A stretch of 21,445 bases of DNA from a virus (Duplodnaviria > Heunggongvirae > Uroviricota > Caudoviricetes). The position numbers and the translations under genes are program-made. The notes under the pieces are model-generated. The model worked only from the letters and a program-made list of their open reading frames with translations, searched no databases and was not told where the DNA came from. Of this stretch, positions 8,046 through 18,559 are shown in pieces. Numbering within the stretch: position 1 is the first letter of the stretch; the number at the start of each line of letters is the position of its first letter. The DNA lies in IMG/VR virus record IMGVR_UViG_2778261069_000007; one strand, written 5' to 3'.

Positions 8046-9557
8046 ATGGGCATTTTTGACAGGGCACTTGGCGCGATTGCGCCAGGGTGGGCTGTTTCGC
8101 GCGCCAGAAACAGAATGCTTCTTCGCGCCTACGAGGCGGCGCACCCCTCCAGAGTGAACAAAACAAAACGTGAGAGTCGGGCGGCAGATACTGCGGTGGG
8201 TGTGGCTGGCGTATCTCTGCGTGAGCAGGCACGGGCACTGGATGAAGACCATGACATAGTGATTGGTCTGCTGGATAAGCTGGAAGAACGTGTTATTGGT
8301 GCGCAGGGGATCCAGGTGGAGCCGCAACCGCTCAGTCTGGACGGTAAGCTGCATGAAGAATTTGCAGCACAGATATCTGCACTCTGGTCGGAATGGTCGG
8401 TGCGTCCGGAGGTGACGGGGGTGTTTACCCGTCCGGAAGCCGAGCGACTGGCGCTGCGTTCAGCACTGCGTGATGGTGAGATGTTCACGCAGCTGGTGCG
8501 GGGCCCGGTTGCTGGACTGACGCACGCAACCCGAGTGCCGTTTTCACTGGAACTGCTGGAAGCTGATTTTGTCCCGTTCAGTCTTAACAGCACATCGGGG
8601 CAGCAGATCCGCCAGGGCATTATCGTTAACGACTGGGGGCGTCCTGTTGGTTACCGGGTTTACAAATATCACCCGGCCAGTATGACGCGCTTCAGCGCTG
8701 AACTGAAAACCATTGCGGCAGAGAACATGCTGCACCTTGCCCAGCGTAAACGCCTTCACCAGTTACGTGGCATAAGTCTGCTTCATGGGGTGATCCGCCG
8801 TCTGGGTGACATTAAGGACTACGAAGAGAGCGAACGTGTGGCTGCCCGCATTGCTGCCGCGCTGGGCTTCTACATCAAGCGTGGTGATGCCGCCAGCTTT
8901 CCGGCGGATGAAGACTGGAAACCCTCAGGACAAAAGTACCGCCACTTTGATATTGCGCCAGGCATGATTTTTGACGACCTTGCGCCGGGGGAAGATCTGG
9001 GCATGGTTGAGTCAAACCGTCCGAACGTCCACCTCCATGAGTTTCGTAACGGGCAACTGCGGGCGGTTGCCGCCGGGAGTCGCGGCAGCTATTCCAGTAT
9101 TGCCCGTGACTACAACGGCACCTACAGCGCACAACGTCAGGAACTGGTGGAAAGTTACGAAGGTTATAACGTCCTGCAGCAATGGTTTGTGGGGCAGTTC
9201 AGCCGTCCGGTGTACCGCGCATGGCTGGCAATGGCGCTGCTTGACATGGATATCCCGCCTGATATCGACAAAACCACGCTCTTTAACGCGACCTATCTTG
9301 GTCCGGTGATGCCGTGGATTGATCCCGTCAAAGAGGCTGCAGCATGGCGGGCCATTCTTCGTGGTGGAGCAGGAACGGAAGCCGAGTGGATCCGTGCCAG
9401 AGGGCAGTCACCGCAGGAGGTCAAACGCCAGCGAATGCGTGAAACCGAATTTAACCGACAAAACGGGCTGGTGTTCGATTCTGACGCCGCCAACGATAAA
9501 GGAGTGCTCCCTGATGCAGCAAATGATAAGCCCGCCCTGTCGCGGGATGACGATTAA
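8046..9557 (+). CDS. Portal protein (lambda B family)
   Basis: 503 aa; sits between W-like and the protease/capsid gene, where lambda-type portals lie. Confidence 0.85.
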   Translation: MGIFDRALGAIAPGWAVSRARNRMLLRAYEAAHPSRVNKTKRESRAADTAVGVAGVSLREQARALDEDHDIVIGLLDKLEERVIGAQGIQVEPQPLSLDGKLHEEFAAQISALWSEWSVRPEVTGVFTRPEAERLALRSALRDGEMFTQLVRGPVAGLTHATRVPFSLELLEADFVPFSLNSTSGQQIRQGIIVNDWGRPVGYRVYKYHPASMTRFSAELKTIAAENMLHLAQRKRLHQLRGISLLHGVIRRLGDIKDYEESERVAARIAAALGFYIKRGDAASFPADEDWKPSGQKYRHFDIAPGMIFDDLAPGEDLGMVESNRPNVHLHEFRNGQLRAVAAGSRGSYSSIARDYNGTYSAQRQELVESYEGYNVLQQWFVGQFSRPVYRAWLAMALLDMDIPPDIDKTTLFNATYLGPVMPWIDPVKEAAAWRAILRGGAGTEAEWIRARGQSPQEVKRQRMRETEFNRQNGLVFDSDAANDKGVLPDAANDKPALSRDDD

Positions 9558-11592
9558 TCCCCGCGCCAGCCTTGCAGGTGTCGATGCCGCAAACGGTCAG
9601 TGCTGGTACGAAATCCGTGCACAGGCAACCGGACGGGTGGAAATTTTCCTCTATGACGTGATTGGTGGATGGGGCATCACCGCGCAGCAGTTTATCACTG
9701 ACTGTAAAGATGCGGGGGTGTTTGAGGCCAGCGCCATTGATCTGCATATCCACAGCCCGGGCGGTGATGTGATGCAGGGCTTTGCCATCTTTAACACGCT
9801 GTCACGCCTGAAAGCGAAGGTGGATATCTGGGTGGATGGTGTCGCTGCCAGTATGGCATCGATGATCGTCTGCCTTCCCGGAGCCACAGTACATATGCCT
9901 GAAAACGCCTGGATTATGGTGCATAAGCCCTGGGGCGGGATCGCCGGTGATTCCGATGATATGCGTGATTATGCCGACTGGCTGGATCGCAACGAGGCGC
10001 TGATGCTGTCTGCCTACATGAATAAAACCGGACTGGGGCAGGAGGAGCTGGAGGCCATGCTGAAAGCGGAAACCTGGCTCAGCGGCGCTGAAGCTGTGGA
10101 AAAGGGCTTTGCAGACTCCCTCGAACCCGAATTACAGGCTGCGGCCTGTGTGAACCAAAATAAACTGAAGGATTATCAGAATATGCCAGAACAGGTTAAT
10201 GCTCTTTTTGCTCCGCGTGCGGAAACTCAGGTTACCCCACCGCAGGCCAGCCAGCCTCCGGCACCACAGGTATCTCAGGACACGCAGCAGCCAGGCGCCG
10301 TAGATATTGCCGCGCTGGCCACTCAGCTTCAGCAGCAGATGCAGGCTGCCAATGCGGAACGTGTGAACGCTGTCTCTGCCGTGTTCGACGCATTTCCGGC
10401 ATTTGCCTCGCTGAAAGCGGAATGCCTGAGCGATTTCACCTGCTCGGCTGAAAAAGCCCGTGAACGACTGCTGCAGGCGCTGGCGGCGGGTACCACGCCC
10501 TGTGCCGGGCCGGGAGCAGCACACATTTACGCAGGCAACGGCAATCTGGTGGGTGATTCCATCCGTGCAGCAGTGATGGCTCGCGCAGGGTACAGCGAAG
10601 CCGAAAAAGACAATGCCTATAACGGCTTTACGCTACGCGAACTGGCGCGTGCCTCACTGGTGGATCGCGGCATCGGAATTTCCGGACATGCCGCACCGAT
10701 GGCAATGGTGGGGCTGGCATTCACCCACAGTGGCAGTGACTTTGGCAATATCCTGATGGATGTTGCTCACAAAGCGGCACTGCAGGGCTGGGACAGCGCC
10801 AGTGAAACGTTTGACCAGTGGACCCGCAAGGGCACCCTCTCAGATTTTAAAACTGCCCACCGTGTGGGGCTGGAGGCTTTCCCGACCCTGCGACAGGTTC
10901 AGCCGGGCGCTGAATATAAGTATGTAACCCTTAAAGATCGCGGTGAGCCCATTGCGCTGGCTACGTATGGCGAACTCTTCAGCATTGATCGCCAGACCAT
11001 CATTAACGATGACCTGGATATGCTGACCCGTATTCCGATGGCAATGGGAGCAGCAGCGCGTACCACGGTGGGCGATCTTGTCTGGGCCGTACTGACCAGC
11101 AACCCGAAAATGTCTGATGGTAAACCGTTGTTCCATGCCGATCACGGCAACCTGGTGACTGCGGATCTGTCCATTGAAGGACTGGATGCGGGGCGTAAAG
11201 CCATGTTGCTGCAAAAGTCCGGTAGCCGCCGCCTGAATATTCGTCCGGCCTTTATGCTGACACCTGTTGCCATTGAATCTCGGGCAAGTCAGTTAATTAA
11301 ATCTGCCAGTGTACCGGGGGCAGATGCCAACAGCGGCATTGTTAACCCGATCCAGAACTTTGCCACCGTTCTGTCAGAAGCCCGTCTGGATGACAGCAGC
11401 CCGACCGATTATTACCTGGTGGCGGCACAGGGGCGTGACACAATTGAAGTGGCCTATCTTGACGGTATCGATACTCCGTATCTGGAACAGCAGCACGGCT
11501 TTACCGTTGACGGGGCCGCATTCAAAGTGCGCATTGATGCCGGGGTCGCACCGCTTGACTGGCGGGGCATGGTTAAAGTCAAAAAACAGTAA
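9514..11592 (+). CDS. Fused head maturation protease (ClpP/S14-like) and major capsid protein precursor
   Basis: ORF 9319..11592; start at ATG 9514 (AAGGAG at 9501-9506) overlaps the portal 3' end. N-terminal ClpP-like region (IHSPGGDVMQG, GVAASMASMI, MVHKPW), Q/P-rich linker, C-terminal capsid-like domain of about 350 aa. Terminator follows. Confidence 0.85.
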   Translation: MQQMISPPCRGMTINPRASLAGVDAANGQCWYEIRAQATGRVEIFLYDVIGGWGITAQQFITDCKDAGVFEASAIDLHIHSPGGDVMQGFAIFNTLSRLKAKVDIWVDGVAASMASMIVCLPGATVHMPENAWIMVHKPWGGIAGDSDDMRDYADWLDRNEALMLSAYMNKTGLGQEELEAMLKAETWLSGAEAVEKGFADSLEPELQAAACVNQNKLKDYQNMPEQVNALFAPRAETQVTPPQASQPPAPQVSQDTQQPGAVDIAALATQLQQQMQAANAERVNAVSAVFDAFPAFASLKAECLSDFTCSAEKARERLLQALAAGTTPCAGPGAAHIYAGNGNLVGDSIRAAVMARAGYSEAEKDNAYNGFTLRELARASLVDRGIGISGHAAPMAMVGLAFTHSGSDFGNILMDVAHKAALQGWDSASETFDQWTRKGTLSDFKTAHRVGLEAFPTLRQVQPGAEYKYVTLKDRGEPIALATYGELFSIDRQTIINDDLDMLTRIPMAMGAAARTTVGDLVWAVLTSNPKMSDGKPLFHADHGNLVTADLSIEGLDAGRKAMLLQKSGSRRLNIRPAFMLTPVAIESRASQLIKSASVPGADANSGIVNPIQNFATVLSEARLDDSSPTDYYLVAAQGRDTIEVAYLDGIDTPYLEQQHGFTVDGAAFKVRIDAGVAPLDWRGMVKVKKQ

Positions 11593-13568: not shown

Positions 13569-14178
13569 CATTACAGGGGATTTGCAACGCAGACTGGCAA
13601 ATCTGGTACGACGCGGTGTGATTCATTCTGTCCGGCATGATGGTATCCCCAAATGCCGGGTTGATCTGGGCGATATCATCACGACCTGGCTGCCGCTGTG
13701 TCAGGGTTTTTCTGGCGCAAACCGGGCTGATTCGAATCCTTATGCCGTCGGTGATGCGGTGACAGTGTTGTCGGAGGCCGGAGAGTTAAACAACGGGCGG
13801 GTGTTTCCTGGCTGGAACACCGGGAAATTACCCGTGCCGGAGGGCAGCGACAGCGAACATATTACCCGTTACAGCGACGGCACAGAGATCCGGTATGACC
13901 GGGCAGCTCATGCCCTGACGATCACCCTGACCGAAGGAGGCACTTACAAAATCACCGGTAAGGGTACGCTTGATGGTCCGGTTGAAATCACCGATACCCT
14001 GACTGTACAGGGGAAAACGCAGATTAACGCCGATACGACGGTGAAGGGTAATATTGGTGCCTCTGCAGAAATTACCGACAAAACCGGCAGTATGAGCGGG
14101 ATCCGCAACATCTTTAACGAGCACAACCACCCCGGCGACAGTGGCGGGAGTACGGATAAACCTAATCAGAAAATGTGA
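13561..14178 (+). CDS. gpV-like baseplate central spike protein
   Basis: ORF 13522..14178, start at ATG 13561. N-terminus (LVRRGVIHSV...CRVDLGD...TWLP) and C-terminal HxH...GDSGG apex motif (NEHNHPGDSGGST) resemble P2 gpV as recalled. Confidence 0.65.
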   Translation: MSDITGDLQRRLANLVRRGVIHSVRHDGIPKCRVDLGDIITTWLPLCQGFSGANRADSNPYAVGDAVTVLSEAGELNNGRVFPGWNTGKLPVPEGSDSEHITRYSDGTEIRYDRAAHALTITLTEGGTYKITGKGTLDGPVEITDTLTVQGKTQINADTTVKGNIGASAEITDKTGSMSGIRNIFNEHNHPGDSGGSTDKPNQKM

Positions 14179-14199
14179 CCTGCTGCGGCAGGTTTTTTT
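14179..14199 (+). terminator. Hairpin plus T-run between the spike and sheath genes (CCTGC-TGCG-GCAGG + T7)
   Basis: Read directly from the sequence; probably an attenuator within the late operon. Confidence 0.5.
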
Positions 14200-14215
14200 A
14201 TGGCTGGAGAAAGAC

Positions 14216-15685
14216 ATGTCTCAGTTACATGGTGTTGAAACAATTGAACTGACCTCGGGAACTGTGGCGGTGACCACTATCCAGACGGCTATTATCGGTC
14301 TGGTGGGCACGGCACCGGAGTCGTCTGCCGGGAGTGCGGCAGCGGTCACCACCGGGACGCCGATTCTGGATAACGTTCTGAACTTCACAGCAAAGGAGAG
14401 GGGCCGGGCTGGCAATGTTATCCAGGTGGACGCGGTGGCGGCGGTACCAGATACGGAAAGCCCGCAGGCTGTTAACACATCGGCATCCTGGGATGACGTT
14501 ACGCATAAACTGACGGTGACACTGGGCTGTGATGAGCAGGGGGTGATCACGGCGCGACCTGCTGATGTGGTCAGTGTGGTCAATGCGCTGGATGGCGTCA
14601 AAGTTCAGGCCGAAGGCAGTGGCGAGGGGCTGTTGGCAACGTTCAGTGTAAAGCTGGAAGGGGGCGAAGATGAGCCTTTTCCGTTAAATACGCCTGTGGC
14701 TGTGGCGGGCACCGCGCTCATTAATCGTCTGGGAGACAAGGGGACTCTCAAACAGGCGCTGACAGAGATTAATGATCAGCGTAATGCGCTGACAGTGGTG
14801 GTGCGGGTGGCTGATGAAACTGACGGGGCAAAAAAACGGGCAGCCATACTGAAAGGGATTGGGCTTCTGTCATCAGCAAAATCCATTACCACGTATCAGC
14901 CACGTATTGTGATTGCGCCGGGATTCAGTGAGGACGATGCGGTCGGGAAAGCCCTGGAAACGGTGGCCGGAAAATTACGTGCGGTGGCCTATGTTGACTG
15001 TGCTTCCGGAGCAACGTTGCAGGAGGTGGTACAGCGCCGTCAGTCCTATGGTGCCCGTACTGAACTGTTGCGACCGCGTGTTCAGGCTGCCGATGCGGAT
15101 GGCCAGTTAGTGTATCGCCCTTACTCTGCTTTTGCCGCCGGATTACGTGCCCGTATCGACTACGAAAAGGGCTGGTGGTGGAGCAAATCGAACCAGGACA
15201 TCAACAATATCCTCGGAGTGGAGCAGATCGACGAATTTATTCTCGGGGATGAAAACTGCGATGCGAACCTGCTCAACATGCAGAACGTATCCACCATTAT
15301 CCGTCGTGCGGGCTTTAAACACTGGGGAAACCGTCTGTGCGCAACCGATCCGCAGTGGCGTTTTGAATCCGTACGACGTACAGCAGATGTTATCGAGGAC
15401 AGCATTCAGGAAACCATGCTGGAGTATGTTGACCGTCCGCTGGATCGCGAAAATGCCGATGACATTATCGGCACCATTAATGCCTATATGCGACAACTGG
15501 TCGGACTGGGCGCCATCTTCGGCGGTCGGGCCTGGCTGGATGAAGAACTTAATACCGCAGAGAGCATGGCGGCAGGTGTCCTGTATATCAACTATGACTT
15601 TGGACCGAAATCGCCGACTGAACTTATCAGTCTGCGCGTCCGGGTGAATAATAACTATGCGCTTGAGGAGATGCTGGCAGCATGA
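14216..15685 (+). CDS. Contractile tail sheath protein
   Basis: ORF 14141..15685, start ATG 14216 (GGAGAAAGAC upstream); about 490 aa; followed by an overlapping tube gene, the canonical sheath-tube pair. Confidence 0.9.
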   Translation: MSQLHGVETIELTSGTVAVTTIQTAIIGLVGTAPESSAGSAAAVTTGTPILDNVLNFTAKERGRAGNVIQVDAVAAVPDTESPQAVNTSASWDDVTHKLTVTLGCDEQGVITARPADVVSVVNALDGVKVQAEGSGEGLLATFSVKLEGGEDEPFPLNTPVAVAGTALINRLGDKGTLKQALTEINDQRNALTVVVRVADETDGAKKRAAILKGIGLLSSAKSITTYQPRIVIAPGFSEDDAVGKALETVAGKLRAVAYVDCASGATLQEVVQRRQSYGARTELLRPRVQAADADGQLVYRPYSAFAAGLRARIDYEKGWWWSKSNQDINNILGVEQIDEFILGDENCDANLLNMQNVSTIIRRAGFKHWGNRLCATDPQWRFESVRRTADVIEDSIQETMLEYVDRPLDRENADDIIGTINAYMRQLVGLGAIFGGRAWLDEELNTAESMAAGVLYINYDFGPKSPTELISLRVRVNNNYALEEMLAA

Positions 15686-16188
15686 GCGATAAAAATACAC
15701 TACGTGCCTGGACTTTCTTCCGGCAGGGGATCCGTATTCAGGGGGCGCATGAGTTTACGCCGCCATCGCTGACAATCGTGAAAACTGACCTGCGAACTGG
15801 TGCCCAGGATGCACCCACGCCCGTGGATGACGGGATGGAAGCACTGACCTGTCAGGTGAAATTTTACGGTCTGGACACGGATATGCTGGCCAGCTTTGGA
15901 TTTGTCAGTGGCAGTCGTTCCCGCTTTACGGCCTACCAGGGGTATCTCGGCAACGGTACTGCTCGCGGTACTGTTGAGGAAATTGAAGGGTTTATTCAGG
16001 CTGTCACGCCGGATGCGCGGGGTAAGGATAATCTTTCTGAAAATGCCATCACGGTCGATATTGCGGTCAGTTATTACCGACAGACGCTGGATGGTCGTGA
16101 ACTGTTTGCCATTGATACCGAGCGCTTTTCCCGCCGGGTGAATGGTGTCGATATGTTATCGGGTCTGGCGGCAAAAGTTCGTCTCTGA
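15682..16188 (+). CDS. Tail tube protein
   Basis: 168 aa; start overlaps the sheath stop (ATGA); followed by terminator and chaperone. Confidence 0.8.
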   Translation: MSDKNTLRAWTFFRQGIRIQGAHEFTPPSLTIVKTDLRTGAQDAPTPVDDGMEALTCQVKFYGLDTDMLASFGFVSGSRSRFTAYQGYLGNGTARGTVEEIEGFIQAVTPDARGKDNLSENAITVDIAVSYYRQTLDGRELFAIDTERFSRRVNGVDMLSGLAAKVRL

Positions 16189-16213
16189 TTATTCCCGTTC
16201 TTTAACTACCTGA

Positions 16214-16233
16214 CGGCCTGCGGGCCGTTTTTT
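16214..16233 (+). terminator. Hairpin plus T-run after the tube gene (CGGCC-TGCG-GGCCG + T6)
   Basis: Read directly from the sequence. Confidence 0.5.
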
Positions 16234-16246
16234 AATGGAGGTGATT

Positions 16247-16546
16247 ATGCCTTTTCCCGGTGAAACCCGCGTTATCCGATTGTTTTCCCCTGTCACTCTG
16301 GAGGGTGGCGTGATCCTTGAGGAAGTGACGATGCGTGAACCGCTGGTGCGCGATCGTATTGCTCATGCCAAAGATCGCGGTAATGAAGAAGAAAAAGAAG
16401 CCCGGATGATTGCGCTGTTGTGCAACCTCAGTGAAAAGGACATCTGGCAACTGACGGCTGCAGACTATGCGCAACTGCTGGATGCCTTCAATGTTTTTAT
16501 GCTACCGCCCGCGAAGCGTCCGAAAGACACCTCCTCCGGGCGATAA
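16247..16546 (+). CDS. Tail assembly chaperone (P2 E-like); possible frameshift extension, see findings
   Basis: ORF 16235..16546; ATG 16247 has GGAGG five nt upstream. About 100 aa, immediately upstream of the tape measure gene. Confidence 0.7.
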   Translation: MPFPGETRVIRLFSPVTLEGGVILEEVTMREPLVRDRIAHAKDRGNEEEKEARMIALLCNLSEKDIWQLTAADYAQLLDAFNVFMLPPAKRPKDTSSGR

Positions 16547-16648
16547 AACTCCTTGGACGGCGACTGCATTTTCCTATGTCGGACTATCTGGATATGCCGT
16601 TCAGCACTTTCTCTGATTTTCTTACTGATGAACTGGAGACGATGAACC

Positions 16649-18559
16649 GTGGGCGGAATAAGCCAGAATCTTAAAGCCGTTATCACGTTTGGCGGTAACC
16701 TGGACAGTTCATGGAAGCGATCGGCTGACGGTTTACAAAAGAGCCTGAATGATGTCGGGAAACGTTCAGAACGTCTGACAAAGGAGCAGACAAAACTGGC
16801 TGCTGAAATTAAACGCGCGAAACTGGCAGGTGAAAGTCTGGGAAATTTGAAACGCCGTTATAGCGAAGTTTCCAGAGAGATCCGCAAGGCAGAGGCAGAG
16901 CAGCAGAAACTGAATGTCCAGATGCAAAAAGCACAGCGGATTGAGGCATTCAAAGGTGCCGGGAAGGGATTGTTCCGGCGTGGTCTGGGGATTGCCGGTC
17001 AGGTCGGAGGTATGTTCGGTACCGGACTGGCATTTGGTGGCGGTGGTGTGGTGGCCTCAGCGCTCGGCACGCTTATCGCCCCGGCAGCAACGAATGCTGA
17101 AACTGCCACCCGCGCCAGTGTGGCGAAAAGCTACGGTGTGGATGTCGCCACCTTCAGTGCGTGGGACTCCCTGGCCCGGCAGTACGATATGAATGCCGAA
17201 AATATTGGTGACCTTTTTGAGGAGTATCTGCACAAAGCGGGTGAGTATAAGCAAAACGGGAAACAGGGCTCTCTTCAGGATGCCTTTGAAACGCTGGGGT
17301 TTAAAGAGGGCGATTTTGCCGGGCTCAGTGATATGGCGCAGTTCGATAAAATTGTTGAGCGGGCGCTCAGTCTCCAGGATGAGGCAAAAGCATCTTTTGC
17401 GCTGGACTCTCTTTTTGGCGGGGAGGCCAGTAAGCTGCTGATGCTGATCAAACAGTCGGGCAGAAGCTACCGGGAGCTGATGGACGAGCAGCGTCGTTAT
17501 AACCTGGTGACCCGGGAGGGGGCAGAAGGTGCGATTGCCGGTAATCAGGCTATCAGTAATCTGCGCACGGTGTTCTCTTCGGCGGTGGCGGAGATTTCCG
17601 GGCAACTGGGTAATGAGCTGGCACCTGATATCCGGCGATTAACGGACGATTTGGCAGACTGGTTTAAAGGGGGCGGCGTCAGGCGTATTGTCACTTTCCT
17701 GCGTAACGATCTTTATCCCGGGGTGTTGAGCTTTGGTCAGGGCGTGGTTTTTGTTGGCAAAATTGTCTATGCGCTGGCTAAAAAACTGGCCTGGCTGTTA
17801 CCGGATGAGCGTGAAGATCAGCGTGATGTGCTGAAGGCGCTCGCCAGAAGTGGTTCCGTTGACCTTGCCAGACTGACCGCGCAGCGAAGTGGACAGGGGG
17901 AATGGTTTGAACAGCAGTTAACAGCGCATCCGGACTTACCGGAAAAGGTGAAACAGTCCTGGACATCGACACGTGGTTATTTTGGTTTTGATTCGGATGA
18001 TGAGGCATTTAACCAGTCTGTTGATCACTATCTGACCCCGGAAAGCCACGAATCCTTATTAAACTGGAATACCGCTTTACAGCGTAACCAGCGGGAGTCT
18101 GCATCGTTGCCCCCGGTAACAACGGAAAATAACACAGTTATTCATACCACTCCGACGACGACAGAAAACAACACATTTATGCATTACGTTCCGGCAATGA
18201 CGGAGAACAATACCGAAGCCTGGAATAAAGATGTGTTACCTCCCGTCTTTCCTGCTGTTCTACCGGAATTCACATTTTCTTCACGACAACAACAAGCCCC
18301 GGATCCGCGTTCTGCCAGAGAGCAGGAGGACAAAACAGGGGACTACTGGGAAAACCTGCTGCAGAAAATGGACGCACTGGATAAACAGCCGCCATCCAGG
18401 CAGGTTATCGATAACCGGAAGTTTGATTATCACTTCGAAATTAATGCAGCTCCCGGGCAGGATGAAAAAGCCATTGCCGATGAACTGACCACGGTCACCC
18501 GAAATCATCCGGCTTTTAACGGGGACAACCGTCTGACGGATGGAGGACTGGTCTGGTGA
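16649..18559 (+). CDS. Tail tape measure protein
   Basis: 636 aa; GTG start at 16649 directly follows an in-frame stop, so no upstream ATG is possible. Coiled-coil N-terminus and glycine-rich hydrophobic segment (GIAGQVGGMFGTGLAFGGGGVVASALG). Confidence 0.85.
   Translation: MGGISQNLKAVITFGGNLDSSWKRSADGLQKSLNDVGKRSERLTKEQTKLAAEIKRAKLAGESLGNLKRRYSEVSREIRKAEAEQQKLNVQMQKAQRIEAFKGAGKGLFRRGLGIAGQVGGMFGTGLAFGGGGVVASALGTLIAPAATNAETATRASVAKSYGVDVATFSAWDSLARQYDMNAENIGDLFEEYLHKAGEYKQNGKQGSLQDAFETLGFKEGDFAGLSDMAQFDKIVERALSLQDEAKASFALDSLFGGEASKLLMLIKQSGRSYRELMDEQRRYNLVTREGAEGAIAGNQAISNLRTVFSSAVAEISGQLGNELAPDIRRLTDDLADWFKGGGVRRIVTFLRNDLYPGVLSFGQGVVFVGKIVYALAKKLAWLLPDEREDQRDVLKALARSGSVDLARLTAQRSGQGEWFEQQLTAHPDLPEKVKQSWTSTRGYFGFDSDDEAFNQSVDHYLTPESHESLLNWNTALQRNQRESASLPPVTTENNTVIHTTPTTTENNTFMHYVPAMTENNTEAWNKDVLPPVFPAVLPEFTFSSRQQQAPDPRSAREQEDKTGDYWENLLQKMDALDKQPPSRQVIDNRKFDYHFEINAAPGQDEKAIADELTTVTRNHPAFNGDNRLTDGGLVW

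Follow-up and report, generated by a model that had tools for sequence, protein, structure and literature searches.

Reading frames of the tail assembly chaperone gene

We analyzed a DNA stretch of 21,445 nucleotides (nt) from a virus of the class Caudoviricetes (IMG/VR record IMGVR_UViG_2778261069_000007), hereafter called the window, and focused on its tail assembly chaperone gene, which lies between the tail tube and tape measure genes of a contractile tail module. The window belongs to a prophage of Enterobacterales. A preliminary description of this DNA had suggested a programmed -1 frameshift in the gene, in the layout known from P2 (E/E+E') and lambda (G/GT), with a T5 run as the only slippery-like sequence. 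The P2-like layout is supported by the gene order, by the selection on the extension and by a profile match to E' extensions, and the T5 run as slip site by the U_UUU tetramer that it contains, which is found in 83/83 relatives. The central features are the following:

16247..16546, + strand: tail assembly chaperone gene, short zero-frame product of 99 amino acids (aa); assigned from PF10109, PHROG 166 and the RefSeq name
16495..16498, + strand: proposed -1 slip site U_UUU, zero frame GU[U UUU] AUG; the only Z_ZZN motif present in 83/83 relatives, with an invariant T16495
16498..16546, + strand: stretch predicted to code in two frames, zero frame MLPPAKRPKDTSSGR up to the stop codon and -1 frame YATAREASERHLLRAI; reduced variability and gap-free alignment
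16498..16674, + strand: putative -1 frame extension (E'-like) of 58 codons plus the TAA stop; frame and stop verified, supported by conservation in relatives and by hhalign

The chaperone open reading frame (ORF) starts with the ATG at 16247 behind a GGAGG sequence and ends with TAA at 16544-16546, so that the end given in the preliminary description was correct. Its 99-aa product matches Pfam PF10109 (Phage_TAC_7, 'E, or 41 or 14'), the family of the P2 E and Mu gp41 type chaperones, with E = 2.2e-12 over residues 10-85 and above the gathering score. It also matches PHROG 166 'tail protein' (E = 3e-25) and is named 'phage tail assembly protein' in RefSeq. In contrast, membership in the lambda gpG family was not found, since a Pfam scan at E <= 1 gave PF10109 alone.

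In the -1 frame (coordinate mod 3 = 1) the stop at 16432-16434 is followed by an open stretch from 16435 to the TAA at 16672-16674, consistent with the earlier statement that this frame is open from at least 16441. It thereby overlaps the tape measure gene by 26 nt from the GTG at 16649 onward, as had been described. Taken without the relatives, the open frame is no more than a hint: on the + strand of the window 4.2% of all inter-stop runs reach 79 codons or more, and at least 125 nt of open -1 frame follow the stop in 6 of the 21 window genes, mostly as the next gene occupies that frame.

Conservation of the -1 frame among relatives

For comparison, 103 related loci were taken from GTDB genomes and IMG/VR; they represent 83 distinct 480-nt regions from Citrobacter, Scandinavium, Enterobacter, Providencia, Pantoea, Izhakiella, Erwinia, Rouxiella, Rosenbergiella and Serratia rubidaea, spanning 55-100% chaperone aa identity. 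A set of 30 non-redundant representatives was used for the codon-phase entropy profile, the RNAalifold analysis, the test of fourfold-degenerate codons and the Shine-Dalgarno (SD) energies. The -1 frame was found to continue for 107-140 nt beyond the chaperone stop in 83/83 relatives, with the conserved peptide ..A[IL]RFLGRRLHFxMxDYLDMPFSxFxDFLxDE... Within the gap-free block 16546-16626, where nucleotide identity is 71%, the -1 frame carried no stop in any relative (0/83) and had a mean pairwise aa identity of 72%. The same block contained stops in 68/83 relatives in the zero frame and in 69/83 in the +1 frame, and the aa identities there were 45% and 42%, respectively. Alignment with relatives was the check that the preliminary description had suggested, and the -1 frame is indeed conserved.

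The entropy profile agreed with this result. Up to ~16516 the entropy maximum lies at the third codon position of the zero frame; from ~16517 to ~16651 it moves to zero-frame position 2, which is the third position of the -1 frame, and beyond ~16651, in the tape measure gene, it is back at position 3. Between 16487 and 16516 the variability is suppressed at all three codon positions. Furthermore, the alignment has no gaps here, and yet the zero-frame stop varies among relatives, lying at 16532, 16544, 16553 or 16565. Since stops are absent in 83 relatives, the protein is conserved, the phase switches and the alignment is gap-free, we conclude that the -1 frame is translated and that this translation starts upstream of the chaperone stop. 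By these comparisons, purifying selection preserves the protein sequence of the -1 extension in all relatives, and the conservation reaches back into the chaperone ORF.

The overlap also concerns the end of the short form. At 16499-16531 the zero frame reads MLPPxKRPK, and in this C-terminal tail Leu-Pro-Pro is invariant and basic residues come after it, with the length of the short form varying from 95 to 104 aa across the relatives examined. The conservation of this tail may be largely imposed by the overlapping -1 frame.

Slip site, fusion product and alternative explanations

The position at which ribosomes would change frame was narrowed down by stop codons in the relatives. Of these, 66/83 carry a -1 frame stop (TAA within TT TAA CGT) at the positions corresponding to 16489-91, and in 31/83 the zero-frame stop is already at 16532, so that the shift must fall within 16492-16531 if the site is conserved. 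The sole in-frame Z_ZZN motif of this interval that is present in 83/83 relatives is T_TTT at 16495-98, a tetramer that permits cognate re-pairing in the A site. Here GTTTTTA (16493-16499) is read as GTT TTT ATG in the zero frame, which confirms the earlier remark that it is not a zero-frame X_XXY_YYZ heptamer. The tetramer is retained even where its surroundings differ. In Rouxiella sp. T17 the codons are CGT TTT ATG, with four T's only, and both U_UUU and the extension are kept; in Serratia rubidaea, at 55% identity, they are AAT TTT TTG, which gives P2's canonical T_TTT_TTG at homologous codons.

The third base of the preceding codon was particularly informative. Among the 26 conserved fourfold-degenerate codons through the T-run, only Val 16493 has an invariant third base, and the 25 upstream vary: the codon is GTT in 28/28 representatives with Val, and the T is retained in the other two, which have CGT and AAT. 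Because T16495 is a silent position in the zero frame and precedes every translated -1 codon, the need for a slip site is the simplest explanation for its invariance. These comparisons indicate that the shift direction is -1, and the best reading of the slip site is the T-run as a Z_ZZN tetramer, U_UUU at 16495-98, and not as a heptamer. The preliminary description had left both the site and the direction uncertain; computationally both are now settled. U_UUU is the third most shift-prone of the 16 Z_ZZN tetramers in E. coli, after A_AAG and U_UUC, and tetramers of this type serve IS1 and IS3 elements (PMC4066793, Sharma et al. 2014). Two other candidates were rejected. A +1 shift would enter a frame that is open only to 16616 and is interrupted in 69/83 relatives, and a slip at GAA AAG (16433-38) would lie upstream of the -1 stop found in 66/83 and would result in a Cys-rich, unconserved linker.

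We thus consider it very likely that the prophage makes a second, longer chaperone by -1 ribosomal frameshifting, as in P2 and lambda, and likely that the shift takes place at U_UUU. The frame, its selection as protein, the shift interval and the conserved U_UUU were computed from the alignments. The predicted fusion is join(16247..16498,16498..16674), a protein of 142 aa with the junction NVF/YATARE in the context LDAFNVF/YATAREASERHLLRAIKLLGRRLHFPMSDYLDMPFSTF; its predicted junction-spanning tryptic peptide is DIWQLTAADYAQLLDAFNVFYATAR, and that of the short form is DIWQLTAADYAQLLDAFNVFMLPPAK.

We infer the ribosomal nature of the event, the exact transfer RNA (tRNA) events, the low efficiency and the function of the extension as follows. 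Most ribosomes would stop at 16544-16546 and release the 99-aa chaperone, and a small fraction would slip back by 1 nt on GU-U_UUU-A. The Phe-tRNA on UUU 16496-98 would re-pair cognately with UUU 16495-97, the next codon would be UAU (Tyr, 16498-500), and the slipped ribosomes would read the -1 frame to the TAA at 16672-74, so that an E'-like tail of 58 aa would follow the chaperone domain (residues 1-84). The slip may take place with Phe-tRNA in the A site, according to the Z_ZZN rule (PMC4066793), or in the P site before AUG is decoded, and the protein would be identical in either case. If the system works as lambda G/GT and P2 E/E+E' do, the N-terminal domain common to both forms would attach each of them to the tape measure protein. 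As in the case of lambda, the rare extension would then recruit the tube protein, so that tube polymerization begins on the tape measure, and neither chaperone form would be expected to end in the virion.

Several results weigh against this interpretation. The window contains no canonical X_XXY_YYZ heptamer, the run being read as T_TTT_ATG or T_GTT_TTT, and a full heptamer is present in only 1/83 relatives (Serratia rubidaea). A simultaneous slip of two tRNAs would re-pair badly, with Val-tRNA moving from GUU to UGU and Met-tRNA from AUG to UAU, and is unlikely. No fusion of this lineage was found in a collection of 5.8 billion proteins, in which the highest query coverage was 68%; neither fusion nor frameshift is annotated in the four close-relative records examined (RefSeq E. 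coli prophages, Chris1 and yong2); and the fusion product is a prediction from sequence. The extension gave no HMMER match to PF06528 (P2 GpE), at E <= 1 for the window and E <= 10 for 16 family members. For the extension alone no Pfam or PHROG family was found, and a sequence search of solved structures with the fusion profile returned nothing significant.

The main weakness is that no convincing stimulator was found. Two elements near the slip site were considered:

16480..16482, + strand: weak SD-like GGA, 12 nt upstream of the slip site; anti-SD duplex of -3.1 kcal/mol
16506..16542, + strand: hairpin CGCCCG...CGGGCG, 7 nt after UUU; -15.5 kcal/mol

Among the representatives the SD-like element reaches -4 kcal/mol or lower in about 20%, with GGAGG in yong2, Erwinia and Rosenbergiella, and GGA 16480-82 is a possible, weak stimulator by its sequence. 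The hairpin is probably not a stimulator, and was rejected as a conserved one: its stability is at the level of shuffled sequences (z = -0.41), its pairs are broken among the 30 representatives without compensatory changes, and RNAalifold on the same set gives essentially no consensus structure downstream, the hairpin being absent from it. Shifts in tail chaperone genes typically run at 1-4%. In E. coli reporters, tetramers without a stimulator were near background (0.147% vs 0.112%), and they reached 0.26-5.6% only with a pseudoknot (PMC4066793). On the other side, P2 is reported to shift at TTTTTTG without downstream structure (PMC3091744) and the lambda G:GT ratio is only ~30:1 (PMC5009743), so that a weak slip site may be adequate. 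A Pro-Pro pause directly after the slip site might conceivably act as a further stimulator.

Other explanations of the open frame were weighed against a -1 ribosomal shift at U_UUU. That it is a chance ORF, with only the 99-aa chaperone being made, would fit the fact that runs of such length are not rare within a single window; with 0/83 stops, protein identity matching nucleotide identity (72% vs 71%), the phase switch and a gap-free alignment under a moving zero-frame stop, the chance of this is negligible. It is also very improbable that the -1 ORF is a separate small gene encoding an independent E' peptide from its own start, for instance the ATG at 16576-78, with no frameshift. Such an ATG is indeed present in the -1 frame, Hafnia phage yong2 is annotated with a free-standing 39-aa ORF at this position, and Wolbachia phage WO carries a separate 'gpGT' ORF. 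However, between the stop at 16432 and the ATG at 16576 the -1 frame contains no ATG, GTG or TTG, no SD-like sequence precedes 16576, and Leu or Phe replaces the Met of 16576 in Enterobacteriaceae MGYG-HGUT-00110 (L006), Providencia, Izhakiella and Erwinia. In addition, the phase signal and the conserved protein sequence of the -1 frame are already visible by ~16517, reaching upstream into the chaperone gene (RAIRFLGRRLHF), and in 66/83 relatives the frame opens just one codon before the T-run.

Two further explanations would give a fusion by another event or at another place. RNA polymerase stutter on the T5 template run could add one U to some transcripts, and since a one-base insertion in the run gives the same frame, normal translation would then produce the same fusion; transcriptional slippage on homopolymer runs is documented (PMC5009743). 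We hold this to be quite unlikely here, as the run has only 5 T, and only 4 in Rouxiella sp. T17 with the extension still kept, and as the mixed heptamers of relatives (A_AAT_TTT, G_GGT_TTT) suit tRNA re-pairing better than polymerase slippage. Known slippage-prone homopolymer runs are longer, about 7-9 or more, which also weighs against stutter. A -1 ribosomal shift elsewhere in 16499-16531, for example on CCG/CCC or AAA/AAG codons and possibly driven by the 16506-16542 hairpin, is improbable, if somewhat less so. C_CCG occurs at 16504-07 in 64/83 relatives and the hairpin does exist in the window at the stability given above. Against this, the window itself has A_CCG at 16504-07, which is not slippery, and C_CCG was only 1.8- to 3.6-fold over background despite a strong pseudoknot (PMC4066793). 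No other motif of 16499-16531 is common to all relatives, and the invariant synonymous T16495 would be left unexplained by another slip position. We therefore prefer a -1 ribosomal shift at U_UUU.

Relation to other chaperones, the tail module and the prophage

We then compared the proposed site with those of other PF10109 chaperones. A homologous Phe codon near the domain end, always preceded by T, occurs in several contexts, given here as zero-frame codons and resulting motif:

P2: GGT TTT TTG; T_TTT_TTG
ep3: AGT TTT TTA; T_TTT_TTA
Wolbachia WO: GAT TTT TTT; T_TTT_TTT
Mica, Arya, Alexa: AAT TTT A..; A_AAT_TTT
Valp1: GGT TTT ACG; G_GGT_TTT
ZRG1: TCT TTT TCG; bare T_TTT

In each of these phages the -1 frame stays open for 125-152 nt past the stop. 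An hhalign comparison of the extension profile with an E' profile built from the same phages (P2, Mica, Arya, ep3, Alexa, Valp1, ZRG1, WO) gave a probability of 88.6% and E = 2.6e-6 over 38 columns, pairing HFPMSDYLDMPFSTF with HWPPSELYPMSLTEL. When the profile of the complete fusion was compared with P2 E+E' as one sequence, the match was weak (E = 0.046) though collinear.

Two other family members differ from this pattern. In Escherichia phage vB_EcoM-569R10 (L115, 386-667) the T-run is absent; GTA AAG, with an A_AAG tetramer, lies one codon further downstream than the homologous position, and 131 nt of open -1 frame follow the stop. A_AAG is the most shift-prone tetramer in E. coli and is likely an alternative slip site within the PF10109 family, judging from its position. 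In Burkholderia phage vB_HM795 (L111, 404-706 and downstream) the -1 frame closes 11 nt after the stop and an E'-like motif (..LTLEDLVWWLTD) is in the +1 frame; either this phage uses a +1 shift, or its chaperone ORF was wrongly called or mis-sequenced.

P2 is the closest of the known systems considered. Its E+E' protein matches PF10109 over residues 7-85, compared with 10-85 for the window chaperone, and the order sheath, tube, chaperone, tape measure, U, D is common to both. The -1 shift is at Phe UUU codon 84 in P2 (annotated as Phe84-Leu85) and is placed at the same codon number in the window, and the P2 fusion and the predicted one both have 142 aa, the P2 short product being 91 aa. In both, the extension ends just within the tape measure gene, and a downstream RNA structure is not evident (PMC3091744 for P2). 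The differences are that P2 has T_TTT_TTG and the window T_TTT_ATG, with the U_UUU tetramer alone left, that the window extension lacks a PF06528 match and is related at profile level only, and that the head genes here are of lambda type and not of P2 type.

In lambda, as here, the chaperone gene is directly upstream of the tape measure gene, and the extra domain of the GT fusion binds the tail tube protein; unlike here, lambda is a non-contractile siphovirus, and no sequence relationship was detectable. The lambda slip site is the canonical heptamer G_GGA_AAG. As proposed for the window, the -1 shift in lambda is rare, ~30:1, and lies near the end of the gene (PMC5009743). Burkholderia phage Mica has a PF10109 chaperone with an annotated joined -1 product, slips at the homologous Phe codon (AAT TTT ACC) and continues in the -1 frame with F-Y as here, but it has the complete heptamer A_AAU_UUU and only 36% aa identity. 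The IS1 and IS3 elements and the E. coli reporter tetramers (Sharma et al. 2014) share the bare U_UUU, on which only the A-site tRNA re-pairs cognately, whereas efficient use there needs a pseudoknot, hairpin or SD-like stimulator, none of which is evident here. T7 gene 10A/10B also extends a structural protein by a -1 shift at an imperfect heptamer, on GUU UUY with G_GU as X_XX (PMC5009743). Its first base G, however, permits partial P-site re-pairing, whereas here this base is U, C or A and never G, and the T7 gene encodes a capsid protein.

The neighboring genes used for the placement of the chaperone are the following:

14141..15685, + strand: tail sheath gene (PF04984 and PF17482)
15682..16188, + strand: tail tube gene (PF04985 Phage_tube, E = 5e-21)
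16649..18559, + strand: tape measure protein gene with a GTG start and the SD GGAG at 16634-16637 (PHROG tape measure families, E = 1e-14 to 2e-6)

The tail module thus runs sheath, tube, chaperone, tape measure, gpU, gpX, gpD and then the baseplate J protein, which is the order FI-FII-E-T-U-D of P2 joined to lambda-type terminase and portal genes. The tape measure product, encoded between chaperone and gpU, has 636 aa; its GTG is in the same phase as the chaperone, and its SD is conserved with a mean of -8.7 kcal/mol. Between the tube stop (16188) and the chaperone SD and ATG, a hairpin GACGGCC-TGCG-GGCCGT followed by T6 (16212-16235) is kept in Chris1, yong2, Rouxiella, Izhakiella, Serratia rubidaea and Providencia, with compensatory changes (GCGACC/GGTCGC in Providencia). 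By its sequence it looks like an intrinsic terminator, and a role in partial termination or attenuation is possible, by which the chaperone and tape measure genes would be expressed less than those of sheath and tube.

A partial copy in E. coli SW0716xx is identical to the prophage; Citrobacter phage Chris1 and a prophage of E. coli isolate SC476 each match it at 82% identity, and Hafnia phage yong2 does so at 67%. In the chromosome of E. coli SW071611 (L001, 2248-3230) the chaperone region of the same prophage is 100% identical; this copy is interrupted within the tail tube gene by IS1, beside a disrupted γ-aminobutyric acid (GABA) permease gene, and is a remnant. Elsewhere in the window, 9319-11592 holds a single 757-aa ORF in which a ClpP-type protease domain covers residues 138-267 and a major capsid domain residues 459-754; its true start is probably later than the listed TTG because the latter overlaps the portal gene. 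Near its beginning, at 1125-2177, the window encodes an N6/N4 DNA methylase (PF01555, E = 9e-42).

For annotation, the analysis points to a conserved, probably essential 142-aa tail assembly protein that is missing from the records of four relatives and from the collection of 5.8 billion proteins, and its joined coding sequence can now be defined exactly. What is new here would be an unannotated case of the known P2 E/E+E' kind in which a bare tetramer replaces the canonical heptamer; the general picture of chaperone frameshifting in long-tailed phages is unchanged. A bolder proposal, which we offer as a possibility and with some doubt, is that the whole Enterobacterales prophage lineage sustains an essential chaperone fusion by a bare U_UUU without an RNA stimulator, the P2-type heptamer having been lost though Serratia rubidaea retains it. 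If so, either near-background slippage, well below 1%, would suffice for tail assembly, or an unrecognized stimulator would act, for which the invariant Leu-Pro-Pro codons after the site, the nascent chaperone domain and slow AUG decoding are candidates. The PF10109 family offers the same Phe codon with the heptamer placing Phe in the P site (T_TTT_TTG/A/T), with the heptamer placing it in the A site (A_AAT_TTT, G_GGT_TTT) and with a bare tetramer. This series would be a convenient system for determining the level of slippage that tail assembly needs and whether tetramers work without stimulators.

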